Assembly (NCBI GenBank): GCA_023143685.1
Contig: JAGLHE010000055.1
Coordinates: forward strand, 14,984-78,983
Source of the DNA: Candidatus Omnitrophota bacterium
Lineage (GTDB): Bacteria > Omnitrophota > Gorgyraeia > Zapsychrales > JANLHA01
Reading direction: 5' to 3'
Length of the DNA stretch: 64,000 nt
The notes beneath the pieces are model-generated. The model saw only the letters and a program-made list of their open reading frames with translations, searched no databases and was not told the DNA's origin. Below are positions 674-62,745 of this stretch, one piece after another (the stretch's first letter is position 1; each line of letters begins with the position of its first letter). Both the position numbers and the translations under genes were made by a program.

Positions 674-760
674 ATAAACTCGCTTGATAGTTCTGATTGC
701 TCGCAACTATTTTATGCCCGTATAGGAATTTCGTATGGAATCTTTGAAATTCCTATACTA
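674..760. repeat. Dispersed repeat family, copy 1 (about 90 bp; contains 13-bp inverted repeat GTATAGGAATTTC..GAAATTCCTATAC)
   Basis: Near-identical sequence at about 13703-13790, 18741-18816, 38888-38945 and 62693-62745; all copies are intergenic. Confidence 0.8.
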
Positions 761-818
761 TAAATTAATATACAAAAATTTATGACAATGTCGTCCACTT
801 CGTACTTATCAAAATTAC

Positions 819-2009
819 TCAAAGTTTTCCCGCATCGAACAACTGCACGATCGCAACGGCAGGAATAGGATTAAACTGCATGCCGCTACACCGCTTAATC
901 TCTTCGATCGCGTCTTTCTTGCTATTCGCCCGTCGATACGGCCTATCTGTAATCATCGCGTCAAACGTATCTGCTACCGCGATAATCGAAGCAACCATCG
1001 GCACGTCATCACCTTTCAATCCATGCGGGTACCCTGCCCCATCATGCCGCTCATGATGATGCAACACCCCGTCTAAACTCTCGGTCAACTCTGACAGCGG
1101 CCGCAAGATTTCAACCCCATGAATCGGATGCTGCTTAATCACTTCAAACTCTTCATCTGTCAATTTGCTAGGCTTATTCAAAATCGCTTCAGGGATACCG
1201 ATCTTTCCGATGTCGTGAAAGATTCCGGCGAGGTAAAGATTTTCAAAAAATGCTTCATCAAACTGCGCGGTCCCGTTTGCCACCATCTGACGCGCAACTG
1301 CTGTCGCATAATTGGTCACACGTTCAGTATGTCCATGCGTATACTTATCCTTAGCTTCAATCGTGGATCCTAACACGATCGTCGCACGGATAAACAAATC
1401 ATGATTCTTGCGTGATTCCGCCTTTAAGTCTTCAAAAAGCTGAGCGTTACGGATCGCCATCGCCGCGTCTGACGCAAGGGCCGCAAAAAAATCAAGCTCT
1501 TCCTGCTTAAACGGTGTTCCATCCCTCTTGCTACCTAAAAGAAGCACTGCCAGAAGTTTATCTTTATAATATGCCGGCACACAAGCAGCTGCATTGATCA
1601 TCTGCATCTGGTCGCCAAACTTATGTAACAGTTCTTTAAGTCCGTTACCGTTGCTCATCAGACTCTCTTGCCAGAGCATTTTGTTAAGATCCTCGACGAG
1701 GATAGCATTTTTGTTGATCGTTAAGAACCGATACTCTTTTTCGCGAAGGAGCCTAATGACCGGGCTGTCGTGGTCAAACCGGGTAAACCCTTCAGGGATC
1801 TTGATACCGGAAGGACCGCGCGTAATTTTAAGGACATAGGTGTCGCGCACATCATCATAAAGAAGCATGCCCCCATGCTGAAGCTGGACCTTGCTGACAA
1901 TCATGCGGATAATAAGCTTAATCAACAGCTTCGGGTCATGAATCATAATCATTCCGTGGCTGGCAGCTTCGAGTTCTTTTTTGTAATCTATTTTATGTTT
2001 TGTTTTCAT
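819..2009 (-). CDS. HD-GYP domain c-di-GMP phosphodiesterase with N-terminal GAF domain
   Basis: HDIGKIGIP motif and HHERHDGAGYP (HD-GYP); GAF-like N-terminus. The ORF track starts at TTG 2027; the ATG at 2009 is more likely. Confidence 0.75.
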   Translation of the reverse strand: MKTKHKIDYKKELEAASHGMIMIHDPKLLIKLIIRMIVSKVQLQHGGMLLYDDVRDTYVLKITRGPSGIKIPEGFTRFDHDSPVIRLLREKEYRFLTINKNAILVEDLNKMLWQESLMSNGNGLKELLHKFGDQMQMINAAACVPAYYKDKLLAVLLLGSKRDGTPFKQEELDFFAALASDAAMAIRNAQLFEDLKAESRKNHDLFIRATIVLGSTIEAKDKYTHGHTERVTNYATAVARQMVANGTAQFDEAFFENLYLAGIFHDIGKIGIPEAILNKPSKLTDEEFEVIKQHPIHGVEILRPLSELTESLDGVLHHHERHDGAGYPHGLKGDDVPMVASIIAVADTFDAMITDRPYRRANSKKDAIEEIKRCSGMQFNPIPAVAIVQLFDAGKL

Positions 2010-2028
2010 GATAAAGACACTAATCAAT

Positions 2029-2145
2029 TGTCATTTCGACCGAAGGGAGAAATCTTGTTTTTTAAGATTCCTCGCTTCGCTTCGGAATGACAAAAATATT
2101 GATTTTATATTTCATATTCACAAACGTTGCACGTTGAACATCGCC
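2029..2145. repeat. 5'-leader repeat element, copy A (imperfect hairpin plus conserved AT-rich tail), upstream of the HD-GYP gene
   Basis: About 85% identical to 2587-2690; shared core ggaatgacaaaaatattgatttta...catattcacaa.cgttgcacgt. Confidence 0.7.
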
Positions 2146-2162
2146 CGTCGCACGCCACCAGT

Positions 2163-2522
2163 CTAAGCCTTAAGTTCTGCTAACACTATTTTTTCCAATT
2201 CGTCTAACACCAGCGGTTTGTGAATGAACCCTTGCACGCCTAAAGCTTCGGTTTCTTTAATCATATCTTCTTCTTCTATCCCTGAAACCATAATGACCTT
2301 CACATTGTTGCCGCTTTCGCGAATTTCGCGCAACAGCTCAACCCCTGTCTTTTCATCCATGCGGATATCCAAAAGGATCAGATCAAACTCCTGGTCTTGA
2401 ATAATTTCATGCGCTTCGTCTCCGCCGCTTGCAGTATAAACGTCAATGCCGCGCTTTTTAAAAAACCTTTTAGCAAATTCCCTGATATCAATTTCATCGT
2501 CGACAATTAATAGTTTAGACAT
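2163..2522 (-). CDS. Single-domain response regulator (receiver, CheY-like)
   Basis: LLIVDDE, conserved D in LILLDIRM, KPL motif near the C-terminus; 119 aa. Confidence 0.8.
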   Translation of the reverse strand: MSKLLIVDDEIDIREFAKRFFKKRGIDVYTASGGDEAHEIIQDQEFDLILLDIRMDEKTGVELLREIRESGNNVKVIMVSGIEEEDMIKETEALGVQGFIHKPLVLDELEKIVLAELKA

Positions 2523-13380: not shown

Positions 13381-13677
13381 TCACCCCTTCAGCCGCAGGC
13401 CGATATCCCATAACGTTCGCACAAGAAAACCCTTCAAAAAAATCACCGCCAAAAAGGCGACAATCGGAGACAAATCAATTCCCATCGTCGGCATAAATCG
13501 TCGGATAGGCTGCAAAATCGGCTCTGTTGTCCTATGCAAAAATTGCACAATCGGATTAAAAGGATCAGGACTAACCCAACTGATCAAAGCCCGTGCTAAA
13601 ATAAGCCAATAAACAATCGACAAAACAACTTCCACAATTTGTGCTAATGCTAAAAAAAGATTTCCAAAAAGAAACAT
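13381..13677 (-). CDS. yggT: YggT family membrane protein
   Basis: Two-TM protein of about 98 aa with a YggT-like pattern (ILARALISW...DPFNP). Confidence 0.7.
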   Translation of the reverse strand: MFLFGNLFLALAQIVEVVLSIVYWLILARALISWVSPDPFNPIVQFLHRTTEPILQPIRRFMPTMGIDLSPIVAFLAVIFLKGFLVRTLWDIGLRLKG

Positions 13678-13702
13678 GCTTTCCCCTTCCTCCTGTTTAA
13701 TA

Positions 13703-13790
13703 AAATAAGCTCGCTTGATATTTTTGATTGCTCGCAGCTATTTTATGCCCGTGTAGGAATTTCTCATGGGGTCTCTGAAATTCCTATACT
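13703..13790. repeat. Dispersed repeat family, copy 2
   Basis: gctcgcttgata...ttgattgctcgcagctattttatgcccgtgtaggaatttc..gaaattcctatac. Confidence 0.8.
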
Positions 13791-18816: not shown

Positions 18817-18827
18817 CAAGAAAATTT

Positions 18828-48519: not shown

Positions 48520-48553
48520 GCCTTTTTCTGCTTTATAAAATCGGACATAAGGT

Positions 48554-48907: not shown

Positions 48908-49269
48908 AATAATTTTATTCTCTAACTTTATATAATCTTCTCTTCAATGATACCTAAGGGTCGTTTAAGACCCCTATTTCTCAAATCAAAACGTTGGTTG
49001 AGAGAGAGGGGTCTTGAACAATCTGCGAACGCCAGTGACCAGATTCCCTTTGGTAGCATTGAAGTTAGAAGATTCATTTCCTTCATATGACTTTCACGAA
49101 TGAAACTTTAATGAAATTCTTGTGAGATTTCTAAAACTTCCAATCATCTAATAAAAAAGGACATACTCGTGGGTATCCCGCCACAATTATGCCCTCTTTA
49201 TACTGCTAAAATTTAGTTGATCAGACCAAATTTTCCTCAATAATCACAAAGATCAATTTATTTCCACTT

Positions 49270-49630
49270 CTACATATGTATGGTGAAAAGATTACCTTTT
49301 TAGCCAAAAATTATTAAGAAACCCAAAATTTCTTCCCCCTACTATATAATGGCGAGTAAAGTGCCTTTTTAGACAAAGTTTTTGAAAATAATTCAAAAAA
49401 ATCACTCCCCCTATATACTAATGTTGGAAAGAATGCGTTTTTAGACACAATTTCTGAAAATAATTTAAATTTTTCGCATTCATCTACAAAACTTGATTGA
49501 TAAGCAATAACCTTAAACCCATCTAGAATGGCATTTGCGAAACAATAAAAAACCGCACCCTCTATATACATATGTTAGAAGAAATGCGTTTTTTGCCAAA
49601 ATTTTTTAAAATAATTAAAAATTTATAAAA
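49270..49630. repeat. Degenerate tandem repeat array (4 copies of a roughly 65-70 bp unit, plus a degenerate gap)
   Basis: Units begin ctacatatgtatgg / ctactatataatgg / ctatatactaatgttgg / ctatatacatatgttag; each contains ...tgcgtttttagacac...gaaaataatt. Confidence 0.6.
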
Positions 49631-49890
49631 TCTTGCCTCTTGCTTGTTATTTATTGTCACATGGAAGAACTAAAAATGAAAATAAATATCATGGTAATTA
49701 AAATTGAAGAAGGCAAAATAAAAGGTGGCTCGTCCGTCACACAAAAGGAGTTCTAGAAGCCACAATACTTGATCAGACAAAAGAACAATTGCAAAAAGTC
49801 TAACAATGCACCACGACTGATTTTTATTACTTATCCTATTTAGGTTCGGACACTAGCAGAATTGCTCGCAAAATTTTTACATATTAATAT

Positions 49891-50436
49891 TTATGTATTA
49901 TTATCTTTCTTACGTAACGTCTTTTTTATTTTTAAAAAAGTTGCGTCAAAAGCAACAGAAGTAATTTTTGCAGTAACCTTATATAAATTCTTAGAATTAT
50001 TTGATATTAAAGACCCCGTATTAATTAAAATAGCTTTACCTGAATGCAAAGATTTCTTAATGATTTTAGATGGGGCTAAAGCTTTATTCTTTACAACTTC
50101 TATTCTTTGCTCAGCTCGTTGTTTTATCTCGGAAAGTTTACGGTAAATCTCCTCAATAACTGCCATCAGAATAAATCCAATAACAACAGAAAGCAAAAAA
50201 CACATTCCAATTAAAACATTTCCAAATACCTTGGGAATATCTACGTTAGAACCAATAGCACTAATTTTTGTTGTAAAGAATGAAAATAAAGATAAAAATA
50301 TAATCATAAAAAAACATATTCTAACAAGAGAAATAATTATTTTTCTAATTGGTTCTGGATATTTATCTATAACTTTTTTAACAGAATGATAGGATATCCC
50401 AATAAGAAAACCACGTATTAGCCCAGTAATTTTCAT
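49891..50436 (-). CDS. Hypothetical membrane protein (4 TM)
   Basis: Hydrophobic segments; overlaps the upstream small gene by 4 nt. Confidence 0.35.
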   Translation of the reverse strand: MKITGLIRGFLIGISYHSVKKVIDKYPEPIRKIIISLVRICFFMIIFLSLFSFFTTKISAIGSNVDIPKVFGNVLIGMCFLLSVVIGFILMAVIEEIYRKLSEIKQRAEQRIEVVKNKALAPSKIIKKSLHSGKAILINTGSLISNNSKNLYKVTAKITSVAFDATFLKIKKTLRKKDNNT

Positions 50437-50618
50437 TTATTATTAGCCCTATTTCCTTTCCCTCTTTTCCGTCCCCCTAAATAACTAATTACATTACTTA
50501 TTATTACAAAAGTTAAAATTAAAGCAACTGCCCAGCCTGCTATAGGCAACATTATTAGAATTCCCCATAATATTGCAATTAACACAAGCGCAAAAAAAAT
50601 AACTCCAAATGAACTCAT
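50433..50618 (-). CDS. Small two-TM membrane protein
   Basis: 61 aa, two hydrophobic helices, basic C-terminus. Confidence 0.3.
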   Translation of the reverse strand: MSSFGVIFFALVLIAILWGILIMLPIAGWAVALILTFVIISNVISYLGGRKRGKGNRANNK

Positions 50619-50948
50619 TTTATCCCCTCCTAATTTGTTTTAATAACAAATATAATATATCCCACAATATATTTGGAGTAAAGCATTAATCCTAGGCTAA
50701 TTCCTAATATTTTCTTTATAAATACCTTAATGTTATTAAAGAAATATTGAAATAAGGGCTTGCTTTCTAACATATTGTGGATAGTGCCTTTCTGTGGACT
50801 GCTCTTCTACCAGACCACATCATTTGGATAACTTTTTAAGTTACCCACACAATCCACAACACTGCGACTAGTTTTATTTTAAACACACAGAATTTATATG
50901 ATCAGATAATAATTTAGGAATAATGACAAGAAAGGATTTTAAAAGACA

Positions 50949-51272
50949 TTACGACATTTGGAGAAACTTTACACCCTTCTCATCAATAACTTGAAGAAGA
51001 CGGCTGGCAGGACCATTGGGTTTATTTATATCTAATTCCCATTTTTGTATTGTGGTAGATTTGGTATTTAAAATATATGCAAGCACGCTTTGACTAACAT
51101 GTATTTTCCGTCTAATTCTTCGGATATCCCTTGCTGTATATGCTTTGGGCTGAGGATATTTCAACTTATTAAATTTCCGCATAGACTCAGAAACATCCAT
51201 CACCTCGGATAAACTGCTAAGTTCATCCTCAACAATTTTTCTTATTTCATCTTTATCTCTTCTCTGGCTCAT
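50949..51272 (-). CDS. higA: HigA-like HTH antitoxin (addiction-module antidote family)
   Basis: C-terminal HTH VSQSVLAYILNTKSTTIQKWE; downstream of and overlapping the toxin gene. Confidence 0.6.
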   Translation of the reverse strand: MSQRRDKDEIRKIVEDELSSLSEVMDVSESMRKFNKLKYPQPKAYTARDIRRIRRKIHVSQSVLAYILNTKSTTIQKWELDINKPNGPASRLLQVIDEKGVKFLQMS

Positions 51273-51681
51273 AATGAATTTCCTCGAAAATATTCTTTTT
51301 TACTGCATTATTTATTATTTCTTCCGTAAATTTCTCATACTGCTGTGATAAAATCTTCAAATACTTAAATTCTTCTTTAGTTAAGTTCTCTTTATCTCCT
51401 TTTGAAAAGATATAGACTGCAATAGCCCATTTATCATTTTCCCAGAAGACAATATTTCGAAAACCTCCACTTTTTCCCTTACCTTCTTTGGCAACCCTAA
51501 CCTTATATAATTTTGCACCTAAGTTGTCTTTCTTGTGCTTATGAAAGTTTTCAAAAAGTTGCTTTGAATACTTAGCTTTATCAACTTTTTCATGCTTAAG
51601 CTCTTTCTTCAATTTAGTAACAAAAGAGCGATTCAGCAAATATCTTATTTTCATTCCTCTATCCTGTTTAAAGTATATCAT
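51253..51681 (-). CDS. higB: HigB-like RelE/ParE-superfamily toxin (addiction-module killer family)
   Basis: LYKVRVAKEGKGKSGGFRNIVFWENDKWAIAVYIFSKGDKENL matches the killer-protein core. Confidence 0.6.
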   Translation of the reverse strand: MIYFKQDRGMKIRYLLNRSFVTKLKKELKHEKVDKAKYSKQLFENFHKHKKDNLGAKLYKVRVAKEGKGKSGGFRNIVFWENDKWAIAVYIFSKGDKENLTKEEFKYLKILSQQYEKFTEEIINNAVKKNIFEEIHYEPEKR

Positions 51682-51754
51682 CTAATCATACACTTTACAA
51701 ATATTAAATTAATGCCGTATTAATATTAGTTTCACAAAATTGCTAACAACAATA

Positions 51755-52702
51755 TTAAGGCTTATCATAAACTTTAACCGTAAATGATTGAAAACTTATT
51801 TTTTCAAAGCACTCCATAAAAAAAATCAACTTTTTAAAATAAATCTTCCTATCTTTTTCATTAACATGGAATATTGTATCAAAATTCTTCAAATCACCAC
51901 CGGCAAAAAAAGACATCCATGCAGACCACAAACAAATTGTTCGAGGCGAATGGCAACCTTTTAAACCGTCTAATGATGGTCCCATATATACAACTATTCC
52001 ATTTTCTTCTTTCCAGCAATCATTAAATTTCAACTTAAACTGATTCTCAAAAAAATAATTCCACAATCGCTCTATTACGGCGATATTTGAATTTGAACTA
52101 TATTTTTTTTCTATCGCCTCTTGAATTTTCAAAAGAAAATTATTTAATATCGTAATAATTTTTACAAGATACAAGCTATTTATCTGTAATTTCTCTTCTG
52201 CTTGTGCTCCAGCTTGCTTTAAGTAAGTTTCATTTGAAATTAGATCATTATGAATTAAACAATTCCTTCTTGCTATTGATTCTCTGATCTGCTCCCAATC
52301 GTTTCCCCCAAGGTCAATTTCTATTTGCAACAATTTGCGAACCTTCTTAATCTTATCTTTAATGCATCTATTTTCAATCTGCAAAAGATATTCTTCTAAG
52401 ATGTATTCTTTAAATTGTTTTTCCTCAAAATTGTTCCTGTTTTGTGCAAAACGCTTATCAATTAATATCTCTTTTACCTTTTTTGATGTTAAGATTTCAT
52501 AAGGCCTAGCCAGTAAATATTCTTTTATAGTATCGATTAAAGATGCTTCAAAATAGGCTAATATAAGAGGCAAAAATGATTTTAAGATTAATGAATTTTG
52601 ATTTGTTTGTAAGAGAGTAGCAATTTCGGATAGATTAGAAGTTTTCTTTTGAATATGACGAATTAGATTATCTTTTGTGAGCAGATCAACGTTTTCAAAC
52701 AT
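51755..52702 (-). CDS. Hypothetical protein with a HEPN-like Rx4H motif (Abi_2/AbiD-F-like candidate)
   Basis: ESIARRNCLIHND (R-x4-H) in a predicted helical protein of 315 aa. Confidence 0.35.
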   Translation of the reverse strand: MFENVDLLTKDNLIRHIQKKTSNLSEIATLLQTNQNSLILKSFLPLILAYFEASLIDTIKEYLLARPYEILTSKKVKEILIDKRFAQNRNNFEEKQFKEYILEEYLLQIENRCIKDKIKKVRKLLQIEIDLGGNDWEQIRESIARRNCLIHNDLISNETYLKQAGAQAEEKLQINSLYLVKIITILNNFLLKIQEAIEKKYSSNSNIAVIERLWNYFFENQFKLKFNDCWKEENGIVVYMGPSLDGLKGCHSPRTICLWSAWMSFFAGGDLKNFDTIFHVNEKDRKIYFKKLIFFMECFEKISFQSFTVKVYDKP

Positions 52703-52917
52703 ATTTTACCTTTCTATTTTATGCCGAACAATTATTATACGATAGTCGCTTTTACTGGCTGTTTTGTTATCAATTACTAAAACACTAACATTTTTATCAA
52801 TTTTTGTCCATTTTTCGGACATTTTTATTATATTCCGTTATAAAGTATCACTTTAAAATATTAGCAAATATTGCGACTGTCCTACGACATAAAATTTTTG
52901 CAATACTGAACATAAAC

Positions 52918-53571
52918 TTAAATTTCTACACTTCCATTAAAACCCACTTCAACCTCCCCAAGAAGCTCACCAAACCGTGCCAGTTGCATCCTTTCTTCTC
53001 CCTGTCGAATAATGTCCAATAATTTACGAAGAGGGAAAAGTTTAACAATAACAGGGTCTTCTTTATTATTTCTTAAGAATTTTTTGATGGGCTTTGGAAG
53101 ACTCAAAATTCTGAGAAGCTTGGCGATATAAGACCAATCTTCTCCTGTGATCTTGGAAAGACCACGAACAGTATTAATTCCATGTGCTTCTTTTAATCTC
53201 AGATAATATTCTGCCTTATCCAGAGGGAAATACTCTAAACGGTTAAGATGCGATTGATGCTTTTTCCAAACCTTTTGTTCTATTGTTTCAATATGAGTTA
53301 AATCTTCGGGGCGGTATCCCATGCAGAATTTCTGCCTGCGACTTTTTATAATTATATAGAAGGGGAATTCTGTCCAGTATGTTCTAGGCTGTATTTTTTC
53401 GTATCTTTGCACATATCTTATATATTCGAACATTTCTGCAGAATTAAACCCTATCACTTCCTTTTCAGGCAAAAGAAAACCTTCGTGCAAACCGTTTTTG
53501 TGGCACAGTTCGCACGAAGGTAACATATGGGGTGGATGACTGGTAGTAGAAACCGCGCCCTTCTGAGCCAC
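52918..53571 (-). CDS. ParB-like HTH protein (paralog 1), N-terminus overlaps a copy of the tRNA-His 3' att core
   Basis: LSKITGEDWSYIAKLLRILSLPKPIKKFL resembles the ParB/Spo0J HTH (LRLL.LPE.I); about 55-60% identical to 56659..57231. Confidence 0.5.
   Translation of the reverse strand: MAQKGAVSTTSHPPHMLPSCELCHKNGLHEGFLLPEKEVIGFNSAEMFEYIRYVQRYEKIQPRTYWTEFPFYIIIKSRRQKFCMGYRPEDLTHIETIEQKVWKKHQSHLNRLEYFPLDKAEYYLRLKEAHGINTVRGLSKITGEDWSYIAKLLRILSLPKPIKKFLRNNKEDPVIVKLFPLRKLLDIIRQGEERMQLARFGELLGEVEVGFNGSVEI
53519..53539. repeat. Direct repeat of the tRNA-His 3' end plus 9 downstream nt (att core copy)
   Basis: gtaacatatggggtggatgac, identical to 57258-57278. Confidence 0.75.
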
Positions 53572-53661
53572 AAGTAAAAATCATTTTTTTAAAGTCTCCT
53601 GCCATATACTCTGATATATTAACTCCCGCAATATATTCTCTGCTTATCTCTCTCAATAACT

Positions 53662-54894
53662 TTAGTTCACATTCATTGGCTTTAATTTATCTTCAAGGCT
53701 TAAATGATATGCATGATAATCTGGGCTATCTTCTTCATTATCCATGCGACAGTGCTCAAAAGACCTTCCTCTACGCTTTGGACCGAACACTCTGGCAAAC
53801 TCACCTTGAAACGCAAGAAAGGTATTCCAGTCCTTATCATGTCGTTGTTTATCATTATAATCTTTATGCCAAGGTTTTCGTCCATATTCATCAAAAAAAT
53901 CAGCTCGCTTATTATCATACCCAATAATTATCTCACTCGAAAAAGTAACTGATCTTGGATCTGGCATTAAAAGATAACCATTACCTAGCTTATCCCATTC
54001 TCGATAAGGAATAACTTCTTCCGGGTAAAGCCATTCTTTTTTTGCTGCCGCTACATACCTATACGCTCTTTTCTTTACGATATAATTTATCTCATTTACT
54101 TCGATTTCTGATAACATTCTTTTAGTTTGAATTTGAGTAAAATTAAACATAGCCGACCTAAACATATTGGGATGTGGCCTAAGGACTCTTGGATTCTCGT
54201 AAGGATTTCTAATCCATGATAGATTAGTTAGTATAAGCATTTTATTCAAACTTAATGGGAACAATGTATGTGTTCCCATAAAAGCTATGTCCGGATCTCT
54301 ATGCCTGAGGCACCATTTCGAATTTGGTAAGCAACTTTTATTATATACTGTAACAGGATGATCAGAAATTATAAATTTGGTATCTGAGTCAGAAGCATCG
54401 ACTATGTTCCAAATACATTCAGTCCATAAAGCACAAAAAAGTTGACGAAACTCCTGCATTTTAAACAGTACAAGGTTCTTATCAGATAACCTTACAATTT
54501 CGCCTAACCAATTAAGACCTTTTAAAGTACGTAACTTTTGAATGCTCATGTACAGTAACAGATTTCTAAATGCATCACCATCAACACTTGGATGCTCAAA
54601 ATTCGTGAAGTATTCTATAGACTCCCTCCCGGAAGAGTCTATCTGACCAAAAAATTTTTGTTCTATTTCAGTTGATTCCCAGTTCCCAAAAGCTGTTGTA
54701 TATAAATCATCGACACAAAAACAACTTCGCGGTCCCCACCGAAGCAAAGCTTTCCGTGCGTACATTCCCTTTTTTGTCGATTTTCGCTCAGGATTAAGGT
54801 CTAAATAATAATACTTCTTTTCCTTATAGTCTTCAGGAATAAACCGATATTGGTACCACTTCGGCACATAATGATTTCTTGTGTACTCTGCCAA
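53662..54894 (-). CDS. DUF4238-like protein (family used as the single-gene anti-phage system Rst_DUF4238)
   Basis: N-terminal NHYVPKWYQYRF matches the HYVP.FY..F signature of DUF4238; 410 aa. Confidence 0.5.
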   Translation of the reverse strand: MAEYTRNHYVPKWYQYRFIPEDYKEKKYYYLDLNPERKSTKKGMYARKALLRWGPRSCFCVDDLYTTAFGNWESTEIEQKFFGQIDSSGRESIEYFTNFEHPSVDGDAFRNLLLYMSIQKLRTLKGLNWLGEIVRLSDKNLVLFKMQEFRQLFCALWTECIWNIVDASDSDTKFIISDHPVTVYNKSCLPNSKWCLRHRDPDIAFMGTHTLFPLSLNKMLILTNLSWIRNPYENPRVLRPHPNMFRSAMFNFTQIQTKRMLSEIEVNEINYIVKKRAYRYVAAAKKEWLYPEEVIPYREWDKLGNGYLLMPDPRSVTFSSEIIIGYDNKRADFFDEYGRKPWHKDYNDKQRHDKDWNTFLAFQGEFARVFGPKRRGRSFEHCRMDNEEDSPDYHAYHLSLEDKLKPMNVN

Positions 54895-54988
54895 CTTCTT
54901 CTCTCTCCCATTTATTGTTACTTATACCCCACCAACCACCCCGTCCGACCTGAACAAGGCGATCCCCATTAAAAACAATTCAATAAAT

Positions 54989-55804
54989 CTATCCTAACAA
55001 TTGTGCAATCCTCTCGAAAGCATCTTCCCGGACATTGCTAATAAAATAATCCGTTCCGTTTTCCCGCTCAACAGCAACCGGGCCTTTGTCATCTTTGTGC
55101 GCGAAAAAGGCTTTGATGTTGCTAAGAACCTTTTTGCCTTCCTTGCGATTTTCGATAAACTCTTTGACCTCATTCACCATCTTTGTTTTATCCGGGCAGA
55201 AGCGCAGCATAAAATAGACATAATAAAGGTCTTTTCGCTTTTTGTCCTCGTTTTCACGCAAGACAAAGGTAAGCAATTTATGAAAAACGAATACCGATTC
55301 TGTCGGGATCTGAACCTCCTGTGAGAAAAATTCGATCTTCCTGGTATATTCAAGTACAATTTCAAAATGTTTAATAGTGTTGAGTACAATCTCTTTGCCA
55401 ATCAGCTTCTCATGGATATGCTTTGGAGGATTCAGCACAGTAATAAATTCTACCTCTGCCTTTTCATTAGCCTCTTTGCCTTTGACAACTGGAACAAACG
55501 GCACCATCCTGCCCATATCTACGTGGCGTTCACTATATCCCAATTTTCTAACCCGATCAGCAATAGATTCATCACCATTATAACTTACCAATGTTACGCC
55601 AAAATCCATATCGGTCGTAGTCAGCGGTGTTGAAGATTGTAAAACGCCTGTTCCCAGACCTTGTCCAGTTAATTCTTTGGGCCAGACATGCTTTTGATAT
55701 AAATATGGAATCCACCCGCCAACCAGTACAAGATAAGGTAAAAAGTCACTTAGATCATCAATAACCTTGCGTAACAATTTTTCTGTTGGATAACCTTCAA
55801 CCAA
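54989..55804 (-). CDS. AbiEii-like nucleotidyltransferase toxin (DUF1814 family) candidate
   Basis: LVGGWIPYLY...TTDMDF (GG...D.D NTase motif); 271 aa; overlaps the upstream wHTH gene by 8 nt. Confidence 0.45.
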   Translation of the reverse strand: MVEGYPTEKLLRKVIDDLSDFLPYLVLVGGWIPYLYQKHVWPKELTGQGLGTGVLQSSTPLTTTDMDFGVTLVSYNGDESIADRVRKLGYSERHVDMGRMVPFVPVVKGKEANEKAEVEFITVLNPPKHIHEKLIGKEIVLNTIKHFEIVLEYTRKIEFFSQEVQIPTESVFVFHKLLTFVLRENEDKKRKDLYYVYFMLRFCPDKTKMVNEVKEFIENRKEGKKVLSNIKAFFAHKDDKGPVAVERENGTDYFISNVREDAFERIAQLLG

Positions 55805-56468
55805 TTTCCACCTCTTTCTCTTTGAGGACTTTTAATAAATAGTCAGCGTGTTCTCGACCTCGTTGAGGAAAATGATATAAATCCAAATAAAGTTGAAGAT
55901 TTGAAACAACGGATAGCCCTTTTATTTTCTGTTTGTGAAAAAAAACCGAGTTTTTGTAATATGGTTTGATAAAACAGATATTGCCGCCTCTTTTTAATTC
56001 TTTTAAATCCAACGCCTGCCGGATTTCCAGAGACATTTCTTTGAAACAGTGACTATCCAAATAACAGTACGTCACCGGGGTATTGACATAATTACTGATT
56101 AAATTGGCTCCAGTATGAAGGGTTAAAGCGTATTTGTCTTCCCATTTTCTATTTTCCAGGAAAACTTTCATTGTCTTTAAAATGTCACTTTCACTGTAAT
56201 ATAGATGGTTTTCGTTAAGTTCAAAATTGTAAACCCGAAGCCATTCATTGATCAAGCCTTCTTTGTCAGTGAGTTGGCTGTATGCCTTCCTACCGGATGT
56301 GACCCCTCCTACAAAGCCTTTTTTCCTTAATTCCGCTAATACTTGGGCTGCCCGGCTCCTGCCCACATTAAATTCAGCTTCGAAATCACGGACCGTCCAC
56401 TTGCGCTGCGGCTCTGCAAGCATAGCCCGAATAACTACCGTGGCTTTATCACTAAAAATAGATTTCAT
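55797..56468 (-). CDS. AbiEi-like wHTH antitoxin/transcriptional regulator candidate
   Basis: N-terminal wHTH (RSRAAQVLAELRKKGFV), about 220 aa; operon partner of the NTase. Confidence 0.4.
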   Translation of the reverse strand: MKSIFSDKATVVIRAMLAEPQRKWTVRDFEAEFNVGRSRAAQVLAELRKKGFVGGVTSGRKAYSQLTDKEGLINEWLRVYNFELNENHLYYSESDILKTMKVFLENRKWEDKYALTLHTGANLISNYVNTPVTYCYLDSHCFKEMSLEIRQALDLKELKRGGNICFIKPYYKNSVFFHKQKIKGLSVVSNLQLYLDLYHFPQRGREHADYLLKVLKEKEVEIG

Positions 56469-56658
56469 AACGACTTCCCTTCCAAGAGTAAATGTCTACT
56501 TATTATAATTGTCCGATATTTAACGGACATATCAACATAATGGACATTATGACATTTATTAAAACAATGTCAAGATTTTGATTGTTATATTCATTTTCCA
56601 TTTGTTTCACCTTCAATGAATTTACCCGGACTTTAATATGACAAATATTCTTACATTG

Positions 56659-57231
56659 TCAAATTCTTACATCTATCAGCCCCTGTTCTTCCATGAACTC
56701 TCGAAAACGAATTATTTGAAGCGATTCTTCGCCCTGCCGGACAATATCTAACAATATTTTGAAATTGAAAAGCTTTACAACAGAAGGATCACTTTTATTA
56801 TTGCGGAGAAAATCCTTGATCTGTTCCGGCAAACCCAAGAGTCTAAGAACCTTGGCGATATATGACCACTCTTCACCTGTAATCGCGGAAAGGCCACGAA
56901 CCGTATTTACGCCATGAGCCTCTTTCAGCCTCAAATATAGTTCAGCTTTATCAAGAGGAAACCGATCTAAACGGTTAAGAAAGCCTTGATGCTTTTTCAA
57001 GGCTTTCTGGTTAATAGTATCAATATGGGCAAGGTCTTCCGGGCGATAGCCAAAACGGAAATGCTTCTTATGATTTTCCATAGCAAAATAAAAAGGGAAT
57101 TCACACCAATACGTGCGGGGTGGAATAGTAGCGTATCGCTGAATATAACGGACATATTCCAGCATTTCTTCAGAAGAGAATTCTACGTAGTCTTTGCTCT
57201 CTAAAGAAAAACTCCCACACGAGCTGTGGCA
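56659..57231 (-). CDS. ParB-like HTH protein (paralog 2), adjacent to tRNA-His
   Basis: LSAITGEEWSYIAKVLRLLGLPEQIKDFL; the track start (57309) reads through the tRNA, so the true start is downstream (GTG near 57231 or Met at MLEYVRY). Confidence 0.5.
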   Translation of the reverse strand, partial: CHSSCGSFSLESKDYVEFSSEEMLEYVRYIQRYATIPPRTYWCEFPFYFAMENHKKHFRFGYRPEDLAHIDTINQKALKKHQGFLNRLDRFPLDKAELYLRLKEAHGVNTVRGLSAITGEEWSYIAKVLRLLGLPEQIKDFLRNNKSDPSVVKLFNFKILLDIVRQGEESLQIIRFREFMEEQGLIDVRI

Positions 57232-57265
57232 CACAAGTGCGCCGGTTCGCGTGGGAGTAACATAT

Positions 57266-57340
57266 GGGGTGGATGACGGGATTTGAACCCGCGACCGCCT
57301 GAACCACAATCAGGAGCGCTACCACTGCGCTACATCCACC
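57266..57340 (-). tRNA. tRNA-His (anticodon GTG), with G-1 and encoded CCA
   Basis: Acceptor GTGGATG/CATCCAC, anticodon arm CCTGA-TTGTGGT-TCAGG, T-arm GCGGG-TTCAAAT-CCCGT. Confidence 0.9.
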
Positions 57341-57456
57341 ATATTATAGTTATAAATTCTTAGTGATAAATGGTCGGTAAAGAGACATCATTTTACCAAA
57401 AAATCCCATATCAGCAAGTAGTTCTTTCTCACAAACAACCCCTCGCTATCAAAAAA

Positions 57457-58506
57457 CTACTCTTCCCTAATCAAGCTCTTCCCAAATGCCTCAAATTGCT
57501 TGCCTATACTCTTTAATTCATCCTTAACATTCCCGGAACTGTCTTTTCCATATCCAACCGTACCTTTCATTGCCACCGCACCAACTTTAAAATCATCCAT
57601 TTCCGTCTTAAAAGAAAAATTCATCCCCACGTCTACGCCAAACGCCCCCAATGCATCTAAAACCACCCCTGCCCCTGATTCTTCACGATCAATCATCTTG
57701 GACTGCCGCCCCATTTGGGCAAGCTTAACACTCCCTGTCACGACCATATCATTTGCAATAGATTTAAAGTCTGCCGCCAACCCCACACGCCCGTCATTTC
57801 CAATCAGCGCCAAGGTCGCATCCATATCTTTCTTTAAAAAATTTACCCTTCCTTGCCCTTTAACACGACTGCCTAAAAACGGGATATCCTCGCCACCCAC
57901 AACTCCCTGGACTTGAAAACATGTTTCATCAGCCTGTAGAGGATACGACAATGCATGCGCTGTCAAGCTAACCTTCTGCGCTTCAGGCTGCCATCCCTTT
58001 TCAGGAAAAAATCCCTTAAATTGTATTTGCCCGTTTTTTACCGCTAAATGTTTGACAATAATTTGCTTCTTTACTTTCGTCTCTGTTTTTCCTTTATCTT
58101 CTGAAAGGTATTTTTTTTCGTTACTAAAAACGAGCACATCTTTTACTGCGGTGATTTCCGGCACCACTTCGAATGGCTGCGCTTTGGGCAAATCCCTTTG
58201 CGTGATAACAATATCAGGGTTGATAACCTTTACTTCAGATAAAACAATTTTTTGCGGCCCGCCCCCTGCCAGCTGTATAACAACCTTCTCGATTTGTCCA
58301 ATATCCTTTACATCAATACCGTCGACCCTAACCCCAAAAGGAAACAGAAACTGCACGCCCTTAACCGTTACCGTCTTTTGTAAGGCCTGGCTTAATGTTG
58401 ATTCCACCATTCGCTTGCCATACAGATTGACCACCACCGAGGCCGCCCAGAAAACAACAATAATGAAAACAAAAAGACCAATAAATATTTTAGAAATTCT
58501 TTTCAT
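57457..58506 (-). CDS. AsmA-like / DUF748-like membrane-anchored protein
   Basis: N-terminal TM, repetitive beta-rich body; weakly similar to 60917..61903. Confidence 0.35.
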   Translation of the reverse strand: MKRISKIFIGLFVFIIVVFWAASVVVNLYGKRMVESTLSQALQKTVTVKGVQFLFPFGVRVDGIDVKDIGQIEKVVIQLAGGGPQKIVLSEVKVINPDIVITQRDLPKAQPFEVVPEITAVKDVLVFSNEKKYLSEDKGKTETKVKKQIIVKHLAVKNGQIQFKGFFPEKGWQPEAQKVSLTAHALSYPLQADETCFQVQGVVGGEDIPFLGSRVKGQGRVNFLKKDMDATLALIGNDGRVGLAADFKSIANDMVVTGSVKLAQMGRQSKMIDREESGAGVVLDALGAFGVDVGMNFSFKTEMDDFKVGAVAMKGTVGYGKDSSGNVKDELKSIGKQFEAFGKSLIREE

Positions 58507-58511
58507 AATAA

Positions 58512-58567
58512 AAAAACGCGCCCAGGACGATTCGAACGTCCGACCCTTGGCTTAGAAGGCTGTTGCT
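58512..58567 (-). pseudogene. tRNA-Arg 3'-half remnant (T-arm + acceptor 3' strand + variable loop + anticodon-arm-like segment)
   Basis: 38 nt identical to the 3' end of the tRNA at 59264-59337 including the trailing T-tract; lacks the 5' acceptor strand and D-arm. Confidence 0.75.
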
Positions 58568-58721
58568 CTATTACCCAAGGCACTCAACAAATTACATATA
58601 AATTATTAAATAACAACGACTTACGGTAAAACAAAAAATGGGCTATTCAGCCCAAAAACCTCAAGTGTCCAACCTTAAGAAAAACTTATCTTGTCTCACT
58701 TACCGCCAACTATCCTAATTC

Positions 58722-59243
58722 TTAAAAATCTCCAGACTTTCCCGCTCCGCCAAAATTCCCCCCACCGAACGGTGTCACCCCAAACGGACTTACTCCATAT
58801 CCAGCCGCACCTGAACGTGGAACGACTTTAAGTTCTTGTTGCATTTCTATTATCCCTCGCCGCAATCTTTCCTTCTCCTCTTCACTTAAATCTAAATTCT
58901 TCAATCTTTGCTGTTGTTTTTCTTTCGCATCCTCAATATCTTTGTATTCTTTATTTACTAACTCAAGAAACGACATCCATTTCTCTCTTAATTTCTCATC
59001 TTCTGTCACTGCAATAAAATATCTTGCTAAATTACGTCGTGTAGCAACATTTGAGCTCAAAGCGTATTCGACATATCGACCAAACTCAGCCATTTTCTGC
59101 AACTCTAATCTTTGCTGTTGTATATCATTACTAATACTATTACCAGCATACGCGACTATTATCGCACAAATGATAGCACTTACAAATTTTAACCAATGCC
59201 CCAACCTCTCATCACTCCCGGGAAAACTGAAACCCATAATCAT
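58722..59243 (-). CDS. Hypothetical membrane-anchored coiled-coil protein with Gly-rich C-terminus
   Basis: One TM, QQQRL coiled coil, GGGNFGGAGKSG tail. Confidence 0.35.
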   Translation of the reverse strand: MIMGFSFPGSDERLGHWLKFVSAIICAIIVAYAGNSISNDIQQQRLELQKMAEFGRYVEYALSSNVATRRNLARYFIAVTEDEKLREKWMSFLELVNKEYKDIEDAKEKQQQRLKNLDLSEEEKERLRRGIIEMQQELKVVPRSGAAGYGVSPFGVTPFGGGNFGGAGKSGDF

Positions 59244-59263
59244 ATTCCTTAAAAATAAAAAAA

Positions 59264-59337
59264 CGCGCCCAGGACGATTCGAACGTCCGACCCTCGCCTT
59301 AGAAGGGCGATGCTCTATCCAGCTGAGCTATGGGCGC
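59264..59337 (-). tRNA. tRNA-Arg (anticodon TCT)
   Basis: Acceptor GCGCCCA/TGGGCGC, D-arm GCTC-AGCTGGATA-GAGC, anticodon arm TCGCC-CTTCTAA-GGCGA, T-arm GGACG-TTCGAAT-CGTCC; T-tract follows. Confidence 0.9.
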
Positions 59338-59404
59338 ATATCTCACAAATTTTAATTATATAGTTATAACAAAATAAAATAATTATGTAAACCACCAAAC
59401 AATT

Positions 59405-60229: not shown

Positions 60230-60360
60230 ACTTGAAGTAAGCATTAATTGGCAAACCCTGCGTAAGCAGGGGACGCTTAAGCCACGGATCCGATTCGTAT
60301 TACACGCTTTACCCCTACCTTCACAGAAATTCATCAGGGGCCGGATAGCCGGGTTATTAA
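60230..60360 (+). ncRNA. Candidate c-di-GMP-I (GEMM) riboswitch in the 5' leader of the receiver gene
   Basis: GGCAAACC + GNRA hairpin (CCCTGC-GUAA-GCAGGG) + GGACGCUUAAGCCACGG, matching the GEMM-I conserved core GGCAAACC..GGACGCAAAGCCACGG; a downstream CCCCGGAUUUUUU terminator-like stretch precedes the SD. Confidence 0.4.
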
Positions 60361-60423
60361 ACAATCTTTAAAGAAAAGATTTTTTAATTCCCCGGATTTT
60401 TTATTGCCGAGGGAAAACCCGAC

Positions 60424-60834
60424 ATGCAAAAGAGGCCTTTTATGGAGAAGTCAAAAATCTCAGTTCTTATAATTGATGACGAAGAAGAACCTCGAGAGCT
60501 TCTCAAAAAATACATTGAGCGCCACGGCTACTCTGCTTTCACAGCAGATAATGGCTTAGCCGGGATTGAAATGCTCACCCGGCATGAAATAGGAATTGTC
60601 TTTTGCGATATTGTAATGCCAAAGATGGATGGCATTGAATTCTTGCGAGAAGTTCAAAAAAACAAATGGCAAGTTAAGGTCATCATGATCACAGGGAACC
60701 CTACGGTCGAAAACTGCCTGGACTCCTACAAAAACGACGCCTGTCACTATCTCTTAAAACCCACTCATCGTGAAGAAATCTTGCAGTGCCTAAAGAAAGC
60801 AGAAGTAAGTATTCAAGAAAACGACTGGGCCTAA
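60424..60834 (+). CDS. Single-domain response regulator (receiver)
   Basis: VLIIDDEEEP, conserved D in VFCDIVMPKMDG, LLKP motif; 136 aa. Confidence 0.8.
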   Translation: MQKRPFMEKSKISVLIIDDEEEPRELLKKYIERHGYSAFTADNGLAGIEMLTRHEIGIVFCDIVMPKMDGIEFLREVQKNKWQVKVIMITGNPTVENCLDSYKNDACHYLLKPTHREEILQCLKKAEVSIQENDWA

Positions 60835-60916
60835 ACACTCAAAAATATCTTGCGAAAATTTATTTAAAAACTTAAGGTTCTTTCTCTGCCTACTGGAACA
60901 AACTTTCATCTTCGCC

Positions 60917-61903
60917 CTACTTCAACTTTTCTGATATTTCATAAAGCACACCCTCAGCAATCTTGGGTTTAGGGATCATCATCTTCCGGGCAGAAACCGT
61001 TACCTTGGTTTTATTCTTTTCTTGTTCAATAATATTAATCGCGACATCACTTCCATTAACCTTTGCCTTAATAAGCCCTTTTGCCTCATTCACTGATTTA
61101 ATTTTCCCCAGCTCGGCGACAATCTGCTTGCTAACACTAAAAACTTCGCTTAATCCAACATCAAATTCAGCCGTTCCTCTGTCCTTGGCAATCAAAACAC
61201 CGACCACCCCTGCAGGTAAAAACCCAACCCCTAAAATAGCTGTTGCTGCATATATCTTTGCCCCTTTAAGAACAGCCGGGCCTGCTGTCTCAACCAGAAG
61301 AATCCTCGCAAGCTGTGCAGCGCTTTTGATATCCTTATATGTTTTATCTTTATCGATATTCATAACCGAAACAACCGGCTGATCCCCTTTACTGTAATCC
61401 TTTTGAACAAGCTTGCCTATTTTAAGAGTCATCACATCGATCTGCATAGCCGTCTCTTTTGATGTCTTCTTCTCTTTCTTCTCCTGTGAGACATCTTTCG
61501 GCTCTTCGACCTCTTCTTCCTTTTCAGCAATTTTAAGAGCATCCAGATTCAAGGCCCCTTCTGTGTTCCTGACAAGAACCATCTCTTTTAAATCAAAAAC
61601 AATTAACGGGAGGTGTATCTTCCCTTTCAACAACGCAAGGACGTTACATTTTATATTTATCTCCGGAATATCAATCAGAACCCCTTCAGGAAAACCCTCG
61701 GGTTGGTACATTTTAAAATCTTTGATATAAATCTTCTGAGTTAAAATTCCTAAATGAAATTTCCCGATTTTTACAGGCGTGCCTAAAACTTGCTTCGCGC
61801 CAACCGTAACCGCTGTTTTGATTAAAACATCTTTAATAACACCAAGCGCGAAAACACAAACAACAACAACCACTAAAACCTTCAGCCATTTTTTATTTTT
61901 CAT
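60917..61903 (-). CDS. Hypothetical membrane-anchored protein (AsmA/DUF748-like N-terminus)
   Basis: N-terminal TM, Lys/Glu-rich central linker. Confidence 0.3.
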   Translation of the reverse strand: MKNKKWLKVLVVVVVCVFALGVIKDVLIKTAVTVGAKQVLGTPVKIGKFHLGILTQKIYIKDFKMYQPEGFPEGVLIDIPEINIKCNVLALLKGKIHLPLIVFDLKEMVLVRNTEGALNLDALKIAEKEEEVEEPKDVSQEKKEKKTSKETAMQIDVMTLKIGKLVQKDYSKGDQPVVSVMNIDKDKTYKDIKSAAQLARILLVETAGPAVLKGAKIYAATAILGVGFLPAGVVGVLIAKDRGTAEFDVGLSEVFSVSKQIVAELGKIKSVNEAKGLIKAKVNGSDVAINIIEQEKNKTKVTVSARKMMIPKPKIAEGVLYEISEKLK

Positions 61904-62640
61904 AAAGACACTCCTTTCTTTTCAAGAAGATAGTCATACTTTATATTTTCTAAACTGTGAATGATATTCTTTTTCACAGCTGAATTTTCTTTCTCAAGCT
62001 GCGCCAAAAGATCTTTCATAGCTCGTCTTTTCGATGTTTCATCATTCGGACATTTAAAAGGGCTGATATCCAAAAAATCACCTTCATGGGCTAAAGCCTC
62101 TACATCTTCTTCCTTAATATATGCCAACGGCCGAATAATCGCAAGTTTTCCATCAAACAACTCTTGTTTGGGGCACATCGAGCCTATTTCTCCCCGATAA
62201 AACATATTCAATAAAATAGTCTCAACGATATCATCCATATGATGGCCCAAGGCAATCTTATTACATCCCATCTTATCTGCCAATTCAAAAAGTACCTTGC
62301 GTCGCTCACGCGAACATTGGTAACAATCAATTGTCTCCCAGGTTTTTCCCTTTAACAAATCCGCCTTTTCAATATGATAGGCAACTCCCCATTCTTTAAA
62401 ATATCCTATCATTTGTTCCATCGGAAAATCCGGCATCCCCGCGTCCACATGTACCGCAACAATCTCGAGGCCCACCGGTATAAAACTCTGCCGGTATTGC
62501 ATCACTTGCAACAAAGACAGGCTATCCTTTCCCCCTGAGACTGCGACCATTATCTTGTCGCCATCCTGCATCATATCGTAATCTGCAATCGCATTCCCGA
62601 CACGTTTGCTGATAAAATTCATTTGTTGAGTAACCGCCAT
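61900..62640 (-). CDS. ttcA: TtcA-family PP-loop ATPase (tRNA 2-thiocytidine biosynthesis-like)
   Basis: PP-loop SGGKDS, CYQCSRERR and CNKIALGHHMDD motifs. Confidence 0.75.
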   Translation of the reverse strand: MAVTQQMNFISKRVGNAIADYDMMQDGDKIMVAVSGGKDSLSLLQVMQYRQSFIPVGLEIVAVHVDAGMPDFPMEQMIGYFKEWGVAYHIEKADLLKGKTWETIDCYQCSRERRKVLFELADKMGCNKIALGHHMDDIVETILLNMFYRGEIGSMCPKQELFDGKLAIIRPLAYIKEEDVEALAHEGDFLDISPFKCPNDETSKRRAMKDLLAQLEKENSAVKKNIIHSLENIKYDYLLEKKGVSL

Positions 62641-62692
62641 GATTTCTCCTACAAGAAAGTTCGCCTTTTATCTTTGACCGGGTCACATCTTC

Positions 62693-62745
62693 TATGCGGC
62701 CGTGCCGGAATTTCGTTTGGGTTTTTTGAAATTCCTATACTACAA
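62693..62745. repeat. Dispersed repeat family, copy 5 (partial)
   Basis: ccggaatttcgtttgggttttttgaaattcctatac. Confidence 0.65.

Follow-up and report, generated by a model that had tools for sequence, protein, structure and literature searches.

We examined a five-copy dispersed repeat in a 64,000-nucleotide (nt) stretch of contig JAGLHE010000055.1 from a Candidatus Omnitrophota bacterium (assembly GCA_023143685.1), referred to below as the window. From comparison of their ends with those of known elements, it was found that the repeats are very probably non-autonomous miniature derivatives of an insertion sequence (IS) of the IS91 family, the rolling-circle elements with a Y2-type HUH transposase. 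The conserved hairpin in each copy is the predicted oriIS, the recognition site of the transposase at the origin end. The repeats are ordinary mobile-DNA debris in a little-described miniature form. The initial annotation of the window had listed a miniature mobile element and a protein recognition site among its candidate roles, and both are retained here; the enzyme would be an HUH (Y2) rolling-circle transposase in place of the Flp-like tyrosine recombinase or regulator that it had also proposed.

The copies were traced with a repeat finder, an nhmmer profile, and an alignment that included the flanks, and shuffled sequences served as the chance control. Five copies in one orientation, as first annotated, were confirmed by the alignment and the profile at the places listed in Table 1. 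The repeat finder sorted them into families D1, D3, and D4, and the nhmmer profile detected exactly these five in the window, with E-values of 1e-23 to 1e-28 for four copies and 6e-5 for the compact copy 4. The arm GAAATTCCTATAC with at most two mismatches occurs 12 times in the window against 2.6 expected, and the full palindrome pattern was encountered 0 times in the shuffles. Copies 1-3 and 5 are 91 nt long, and copy 4, correctly described at the outset as a compact form with a 3-nt spacer, is a variant of about 63 nt. Two further copies of approximately 93-95 nt lie in tandem on the same contig about 6 kb past the window end (locus L102, 3516-3701), giving a density of 7 copies per ~74 kb for the window and the sequence beyond its end. 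The alignment with flanks places the boundaries at TAAA/CAAG on the left and ...CCTATAC-TA on the right; similarity begins at TAAAATAAGCTCGC, at CAAGTTAGCTCGCC in copy 4, and at CAAGAAAGTTCGCC in copy 5, whose upstream flank has diverged as well. Pairwise likeness among the copies is approximately 75-87%. The initial annotation had named a lack of further copies as grounds for its rejection, but such copies were found on the same contig and in a related metagenome-assembled genome (MAG), with the core palindrome present in many phyla.

The connection to the IS91 family was drawn at the right end. The comparison set consisted of annotated 'IS91 family transposase' elements from plasmids, whose right ends were read downstream of tnpA. 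Their terminal arms read GAAATTCCTATGC-AT-CAAG, ATTTCCTATAC-GT-CAAG, and AAATTCCTATCG-AT-CGAG, and those of the window copies read GAAATTCCTATAC-TA. The window copies thus display the right-end organization of the family, a subterminal palindrome with a terminal arm ...AAATTCCTAT(A/G)C followed by two nucleotides. It was noted that the right arm and terminus are nearly invariant among the copies while the left arm drifts, and that the Pseudomonas syringae and Escherichia coli elements have the same asymmetry. Such asymmetry would be predicted if sequence-specific reading falls on the terminal arm. In Pseudomonas IS801-like elements (L002 2370-2415; L104 ~2036-2085), the stem of oriIS takes in the terminal AT, and the flanking CTTG pairs with an internal CAAG (CTTGATG...CATCAAG), which places the target tetranucleotide inside the stem; this extension is absent from the window family.

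Elements of the IS91 family target 5'-CTTG or 5'-GTTC, with an invariant T at position 2 and the tetranucleotide abutting oriIS; they produce no target duplication, have subterminal palindromes at both ends, and insert as a bottom-strand single-stranded DNA (ssDNA) circle alone (PMC13181058). The targets of IS801 are GAAC, GGAC, CAAG, and CGAC (PMC3189936). We found that the tetranucleotide after CCTATAC-TA (Table 1; TAAA and TAAG for the two tandem copies) has AA at positions 2-3 in all seven copies, so that NAAN on the top strand corresponds to 5'-NTTN on the bottom strand, and that the canonical GAAC or CAAG stands beside three of the seven. Among 53 oriented elements of other lineages, T occupied position 2 in 49, and 12 were flanked by CTTG, GTTC, CTCG, or GTCC (background ~1% per position). 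Neither a target-site duplication nor terminal inverted repeats were observed: no direct repeat is common to the flanks of the seven copies, and the left and right ends show no sequence relationship. The two copies in tandem meet exactly, reading ...CCTATACTA|TAAAATAAG..., or ...GCGAGCTTATTTTA|TAGTATAGG... on the gene-sense strand, and the terminal TTTA of one copy doubles as the flanking tetranucleotide of its neighbor. Such abutment is the outcome expected if the ter end resembles a target.

From the start of the alignment, the lack of a flank repeat, and the lack of terminal inverted repeats, the left end (terIS) appears to open, like those of IS801 and IS1294, with a tetranucleotide that resembles the target. 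The left ends start with TAAA or CAAG, followed by AAGCTCGC..., and an interior of about 45 nt separates the left end from the oriIS hairpin. This left-end module is conserved, also in other phyla (AAGCTCGC / AAATTCGC). The ter ends of the family follow a plan of a tetranucleotide, approximately 4 nt, and a GC-rich hairpin, which we compared across a full-length element, miniatures, and the related MAG that contains the closest relative of the window (L065; Table 1). The hairpin is intact in the L083 element, in the WOR-3 miniatures, and in L065, where it folds as DNA at -26 kcal/mol (z = -8). The GC-rich hairpin is conserved at IS91-family left ends although possibly dispensable, and miniature ori-end derivatives of IS801 of 229-679 nt transpose in vivo (PMC3189936).

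Open reading frames (ORFs) near the palindromes were clustered across the 97 loci listed by the genome scan described below. The sole recurrent neighbor was a related protein pair from Pseudomonas quercus (L002) and a WOR-3 genome (L083). Both proteins possess Zn_Tnp_IS91 and Y2_Tnp domains (E-values of 6e-49 and 8e-30) and were therefore assigned to the IS91-family rolling-circle transposases. The exact palindrome lies 155 nt past the transposase stop codon in L002, where it is followed by AT-CAAG, and 210 nt past it in L083. In addition, one WOR-3 MAG (JBBILZ01) contains the full-length element L083 together with the miniatures L048 and L086. No Y2 transposase gene was found by tblastn in L098, L102, or L103, and the lack of one across the ~74 kb sampled indicates that the copies are non-autonomous.

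Table 1. Positions of the repeat copies and their hairpins in the window, with the right and ter ends of the elements used for comparison (hairpin arms of ter ends in brackets).
Feature	Position	Strand	Sequence and context
Copy 1	670-760	+	Between convergent histidine-kinase (2-625 +) and HD-GYP/GAF (819-2027 -) genes; flanking tetranucleotide 761-764 TAAA
Copy 1 oriIS hairpin (predicted)	720-758		GTATAGGAATTTC-N13-GAAATTCCTATAC; perfect 13-bp arms
Copy 2	13701-13791	+	Fills gap between MscS-like (13764-14858 -) and YggT-family (~13381-13677 -) genes; flanking tetranucleotide 13792-13795 GAAC
Copy 2 oriIS hairpin (predicted)	13751-13789		Left arm GTGTAGGAATTTC; one G-T/A-C position
Copy 3	18726-18816	+	Between pilus/type II secretion system-like gene (18828-19289 -) and thioredoxin gene (18202-18522 -); flanking tetranucleotide 18817-18820 CAAG
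Copy 3 oriIS hairpin (predicted)	18776-18814		Two uncompensated arm differences
Copy 4, compact	38882-38944	+	Left end CAAGTTAGCTCGCC-ct-AGCTCGCC; between 58-aa ORF (38954-39130 -) and GH65 gene (36324-38648 -); flanking tetranucleotide 38945-38948 AAAT
Copy 4 oriIS hairpin (predicted)	38916-38942		GTATAGGAATTT-TTC-AAATTCCTATAC; same compact form as the dominant one in WOR-3 MAGs
Copy 5, most diverged	62652-62742	+	Left end CAAGAAAGTTCGCC; fills gap between TPR (62740-63717 -) and PP-loop/TilS-like (61900-62640 -) genes; flanking tetranucleotide 62743-62746 CAAG
Copy 5 oriIS hairpin (predicted), degenerate	62702-62740		Left arm GTGCCGGAATTTC, 3 mismatches; right arm intact
P. syringae (IS801-like) right end			...GCATAGGCGTTTTGAAATTCCTATGC-AT-CAAG
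E. coli element next to blaCMY-2, right end			...CAATTTCCTATAC-GT-CAAG
IS91 right end			...TTAAATTCCTATCG-AT-CGAG
Serratia element right end			GGTTAGGAAACT-N20-AGTTTCCTAACC-AT-CGAG
Full-length L083 element (WOR-3), ter end			GAAC-ATAG-TCAGGGGtttcaCCCCTGA (TCAGGGG/CCCCTGA)
WOR-3 miniatures, ter end			CAAG-ATAT-TCAGGGGGtatCCCCCTGA (TCAGGGGG/CCCCCTGA)
IS91 and E. coli element, ter end			CGAG/GAAC...GCAGCCtggcGGCTGC
L065 (related MAG), ter end			TAAA-ATAG-GCGAGCCCCCttctGGGGGCTCGC (GCGAGCCCCC/GGGGGCTCGC)

The distribution of the palindrome was assessed by scanning 185,579 species genomes for TAGGAATTT-N(1-20)-AAATYCCTATAC, which returned at least 97 stretches. The matches listed were clustered in a few MAG lineages, including several WOR-3 genomes (with numerous copies, frequently at contig ends), Clostridia (Acetivibrio and others), Elusimicrobia, and Bdellovibrionales, with further matches in Patescibacteria/Parcubacteria, Atribacteria, and a groundwater 'Actinomycetota' MAG. 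One MAG (CBDUYP01) contained window-type flanks (CCGTG...CTA). The 12-nt arms are identical within each lineage, the loop varies from 1 to ~19 nt, and complementary bases specific to each lineage (ATT/AAT, AG/CT, CG/CG, CTTAGG/CCTAAG) lengthen the stem. A lineage-specific module always stands on one side of the palindrome, which yields multi-copy miniature elements, and those of several phyla combine the common oriIS hairpin with an AAG(C/T)TCGC-type left end. When oriented from palindrome to module, the elements were co-oriented with 65 of 82 neighboring ORFs, and by crude ORF calls the palindrome often begins 0-20 nt past an upstream stop codon. The conservation of the palindrome across phyla is attributed to its recognition by a conserved transposase family.

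BLAST of the window against the loci listed returned distant relatives only, the closest being L021 with 63% amino-acid identity in one operon. Metagenome contigs scanned with window-specific patterns yielded no match, and the viral contigs yielded three single-strand, chance-level matches, which indicates no phage link. The WOR-3 loci (L009, L039, L047, L062, L071, L086, and others) contain many miniatures of ~170-200 nt, arranged as CAAG with a GC hairpin (TCAGGGGG/CCCCCTGA), an interior of about 100 nt, another palindrome (TAATGAAATTTTTCATTA), and finally the oriIS palindrome; some copies carry other repeats nested inside. It was noted that the full-length IS91-family element at L083 1785-3700 has ends matching these WOR-3 miniatures.

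By homology with IS91 and IS801, a route for the spread of the window copies can be proposed. The plus strand of the window would be the 'top', tnpA-sense strand, running from the ter-like left end to the oriIS right end, with the terminal TA abutting the insertion target NAAN (bottom 5'-NTTN, often CTTG or GTTC). A transposase supplied in trans would recognize the oriIS hairpin and terminal arm and nick the bottom strand at the junction of 5'-NTTN with the TA-hairpin end. Rolling-circle displacement would then proceed to the ter end (...CTTATTTTA), where a second cleavage would release a bottom-strand ssDNA circle, and this circle would join 3' of another 5'-NTTN without target duplication. 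Signs of mobility are indirect only, namely the tandem abutment, the overlaps with gene ends, and the multiple dispersed copies.

The gene context of the copies offers additional information on their placement. Nearly all real genes in the window are on the minus strand, the GC skew of the plus strand is negative throughout, and the copies occupy short gaps between genes. The initial description of the copies as strictly intergenic holds for their location in gaps, but not for copies 2 and 5, which overlap the 3' ends of genes. The loop of copy 2 contains the MscS stop codon (13764-13766), and the final 8-9 codons of MscS (...SIGISETP*) are copy 2 sequence; in copy 5, the terminal C and TA form the TAG stop codon of the TPR gene (62740-62742), and the Shine-Dalgarno sequence of the PP-loop/TilS-like gene sits 2-3 nt from the same copy. 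An inserted element explains these odd gene ends, and its effects on the host would be a stable hairpin added right after stop codons, a new C-terminus for MscS, and a stop codon supplied to the TPR gene. In all seven copies the bottom strand is the minus strand of the window, which is G-rich and gene-coding. This strand is presumably the leading strand and would have the sequence of the lagging-strand template, so that the shared orientation would agree either with insertion into ssDNA at the fork, the kind of targeting known for IS200/IS605, or with selection that keeps the copies co-oriented with transcription.

Several observations weigh against an IS91-family origin or limit what it explains. 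The ter hairpin is degenerate in the window family, where GCTCGC...GCTCGC forms a direct and not an inverted repeat. Only three of the seven flanking tetranucleotides are canonical, and the others (TAAA, TAAG, AAAT), classed as AT-only, are less specific in AT-rich spacers. As nearly all genes share one strand, the uniform orientation of the copies is inseparable from gene orientation. The tblastn search detected no Y2 transposase gene in the window or ~10 kb beyond it. The likeness of ~75-87% between copies suggests that the element family may be old and inactive, and some copies may have been exapted for a secondary RNA role.

We also considered whether the element carries an outward promoter through oriIS (TTGATA/TTGACA-18-TATTT[TC], plus strand) that would generate an RNA antisense to the upstream gene at its 3' end, an addition that we judge improbable. 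Promoter-like matches occur at 684-713 and 13715-13744, the -35 box is conserved in five of seven copies, and one of the tandem copies has a perfect TTGACA. The oriIS region of ISCR1 does contain functional outward promoters (POUT; PMC6218425). However, only 9 of 12 positions match, across an 18-nt spacer, and in such AT-rich DNA the number of these matches is close to chance (64 found versus 47 expected in shuffles); the promoter rules of this lineage may also differ. One copy has lost the -10 box (TTTTTT), and copies 4 and 5 have no such match. The weak TTGATA-18-TATTTT was not convincing as an ISCR1-type outward promoter.

A second alternative is that the repeats are functional RNAs, such as a terminator or attenuator, a stabilizer of mRNA 3' ends, or a small RNA (sRNA), kept by selection and not by transposition; this was considered quite unlikely. 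The position of the hairpin 0-20 nt past stop codons in many lineages and the co-orientation with neighboring ORFs would suit such a role, as would the stable hairpins predicted for copies 1 and 4 (z ~ -3.6 to -4.8), the resemblance of the L065 ter end to an intrinsic terminator, and the overlap of Clostridial relatives with an Rfam 'sRNA' family. The hairpin itself argues otherwise, as its stem is AT-rich, no U/T-run follows it on either strand, and a terminator scan called none at the copies. For copies 3 and 5 the fold is no more stable than in shuffles, and the stem changes are uncompensated. The change of spacer from 13 nt to 3 nt in copy 4 also speaks against a structured RNA under selection. 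The GTGTAGG variant leaves a G-T pair on the plus strand and an A-C mismatch on the minus strand, and the second change in copy 3 does the opposite. No Rfam match was found at any copy, and the window yielded only two tRNAs and a c-di-GMP-I riboswitch. The small RNA or terminator suggested initially was therefore not upheld by the structure and covariation check, and the identity of the stem across phyla, the IS91-type termini, and the tandem abutment are explained by transposition.

Extragenic palindromes of the REP/REPIN type, which in enterobacteria and pseudomonads are mobilized by RAYT (Y1 HUH) proteins, resemble the window copies as short multi-copy hairpins at gene 3' ends with one orientation and mosaic flanks, and GTAG is present in some copies (GTGTAGG). 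This origin was nevertheless found very unlikely. The hairpin, terminal bases, and flanking tetranucleotides are of the IS91 type, the transposase genes found beside the palindrome encode Y2_Tnp and not Y1 domains, and clustering of flanking ORFs recovered no recurrent Y1-like ORF near the 97 loci listed. Moreover, REPs are lineage-specific, whereas the core examined here is identical across phyla.

The weakest alternative, for which we see almost no prospect, is that the palindrome forms the FRT-like core of a tyrosine recombinase site or the operator of a dimeric regulator. The right arm is identical at 12 of 13 positions to one arm of the Flp FRT site, and a third, degenerate arm-like segment is present in the loop, both in copy 1 and in the Clostridial forms. 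The likeness of single arms noted in the initial annotation therefore stands, but an FRT-type core does not, as the polarity is reversed: the ...CCTATAC ends of FRT face a fixed 8-bp spacer, while here the GAAAT ends face the loop. Four copies have a spacer of 13 nt and copy 4 one of 3 nt, and in other lineages it ranges from 1 to ~19 nt; such variability is compatible neither with a 6-8-bp crossover region nor with a rigidly bound dimer. No integrase or recombinase was recorded in the gene tables for ~7.4-24.9 kb and ~52.7-64 kb of the window and for ~9.5 kb past its end, and the sites lie past stop codons and not at promoters. The resemblance to FRT is best treated as coincidence.

Additional candidates were tried and rejected. 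A sigma-70 promoter formed by the palindrome itself was set aside on account of spacing that shifts with loop length, sigma-H-like or ECF-like boxes had the wrong spacing, and the operator of a dimeric transcription factor was excluded by its variable spacing. A likeness to the tRNA-Phe anticodon arm (GGAAT-TTGAAAA-ATTCC) was dropped given that the loop triplet differs between lineages and the stem is 12 bp, as was a SECIS- or PYLIS-like recoding hairpin after UAG, since the TAG of the element is a stop codon in only one of seven copies. A miniature inverted-repeat transposable element (MITE) with terminal inverted repeats and a TA duplication did not fit, as the palindrome continues into the bases beyond the arms (ATT/AAT, AG/CT, CTTAGG/CCTAAG), which are not direct repeats. 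The abutted inverted-repeat junctions of circle-forming IS elements were considered and dropped. A small peptide in the WOR-3 module was rejected for want of a conserved frame, and an apparent conserved link to tilS arose from a cluster produced by translating the repeat itself, with tilS-like neighbors at only three loci.

The Clostridial relatives bear on an existing RNA family. Matches to the Clostridiales-2 'sRNA' (RF02937) were found at L016 2286-2404 (-) and L078 640-763 (+), with 87 and 79 bits, and directly abut the IS91-type palindrome; they were confined to these two Clostridial loci, with none in the window. Clostridial repeats at these and other loci (L003, L029, L030, L055, L079, L084, L007) form units of 150-230 nt that start with CAAGAAAATTCGC... 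(in a hairpin with ...GAATTTTCTTG) and end with ...CCTATAC-TC|CAAG. Judged by this arrangement, the RF02937 motif has the appearance of the inner part of a non-autonomous IS91-type element read on the bottom strand, and the family merits re-examination. A literature search recovered neither the arm sequence nor anything relevant on 'Clostridiales-2'.

A broader proposal, which we hold tentatively and regard as possible more than probable, is that IS91-family transposons have given rise to a largely undescribed, MITE-like class of 60-230-nt elements, a bacterial counterpart of mini-Helitrons. This class may have been amplified in WOR-3, Elusimicrobia, Clostridia, Bdellovibrionales, Patescibacteria, Atribacteria, and the lineage of the window, and would be marked by the common oriIS hairpin, the AAG(C/T)TCGC-type left end, and a position after stop codons in co-orientation with genes. 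On this view, Clostridiales-2 would represent the inner part of one of these elements, with a structure belonging to ssDNA or to a transposon end and not to an RNA gene. The window family, which lacks the ter hairpin, would persist at gene ends in a manner fitting exaptation as an mRNA 3'-end hairpin or an antisense-promoter module.

Comparison with known systems helps to place the predicted IS91-family miniatures. They share with IS91, IS801, IS1294, and ISCR elements the subterminal palindrome of the right end, the near-identical terminal arm (G/T)AAATTCCTAT(A/G)C with two further nucleotides, the abutting CAAG/GAAC-type tetranucleotide, the target-like left tetranucleotide, and the lack of target-site duplications and terminal inverted repeats. 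Unlike these elements, they have no transposase gene and measure 63-93 nt compared to ~1.5-1.8 kb; the terminal dinucleotide is TA and not AT or GT, the targets are relaxed to TAAA, TAAG, and AAAT, and the GC-rich ter hairpin is lost. The closest precedents are the IS801 miniature fragments and, in eukaryotes, the non-autonomous Helitrons. The IS801 miniatures of Pseudomonas syringae are likewise non-autonomous ori-end pieces with a target-like left tetranucleotide that are mobilized in trans, but they are low-copy direct truncations of a resident IS with lengths of 229-679 nt (Bardaji et al. 2011, PMC3189936). The window elements are shorter, diverged, present at 7 copies per 74 kb, and equipped with a distinct conserved left module.

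Likenesses extend to other HUH-dependent repeats. REP/REPIN sequences are also extragenic multi-copy hairpins near stop codons, maintained by an HUH enzyme that acts on ssDNA hairpins, but they use Y1 and not Y2 enzymes and usually occur as inverted doublets. Non-autonomous Helitrons and the PATEs and MITE-like derivatives of IS200/IS605 are similarly protein-less and keep only their end hairpins, with no target-site duplication, insertion beside a short specific sequence, and a strand or orientation bias. They differ in their end sequences and enzymes, and the Helitron hairpin is located at the 3' (ter) end with insertion between A and T.

What is new here is the presence of small multi-copy non-autonomous IS91-family elements in an uncultivated lineage. 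IS91 and ISCR elements have been studied mostly as vehicles of resistance genes in Proteobacteria, and the occurrence of oriIS on protein-less miniatures in distant uncultivated phyla suggests that trans-mobilizable derivatives are far more common than the few described IS801 fragments. The set of copies amounts to an alignment, supplied by nature, of what the ori and ter ends minimally require. For annotation, they should be masked as IS91-family miniature elements and not recorded as sRNAs, terminators, or recombination sites. It was also noted that the elements break MAG assemblies, as many copies lie at contig ends.

Additional features were recorded in the window. The c-di-GMP-I riboswitch (60240-60361 +, 45.6 bits) precedes a stand-alone response-regulator receiver gene (60442-60834 +), one of the few plus-strand genes there. 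A 70-nt segment comprising the 3' part of tRNA-Arg(TCT) and its downstream bases is duplicated about 750 bp apart at 90% identity (58502-58571 and 59249-59318). The lowest GC content (0.33-0.35) was found at 48-56 kb, where AbiEi-like, DUF4238, and ParB-HTH-like genes lie near tRNA-His and tRNA-Arg, and the region 48000-59400 may be an integrated island with att-type tRNA repeats.

Other repeat families were also encountered. A 66-nt repeat is present in three copies (88% and 65% identity) at 45731-45796, 46906-46971, and 47843-47908, ending in GGCTGGCTGAAGCAGGTTAGAACCTGTTT and lying between consecutive minus-strand ORFs. Four AT-rich units of ~78 nt with 62-79% identity, spaced 69-151 nt apart, occupy a gene-poor, low-GC stretch at 49255-49624 and are not CRISPR-like. 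A second dispersed repeat was found at 2029-2134 and 2619-2688 (44 nt at 91% and 31 nt at 87%), upstream of two minus-strand genes and with the hairpin GATTCCTCGCTTCGCTTCGGAATGAC. It matches locus L052 1640-1702 of a groundwater MAG at 83% and resembles ...CGCTTCGCTCCGTTCAGAATGAC... inside the WOR-3 repeats (L077), and it is probably another small mobile repeat.

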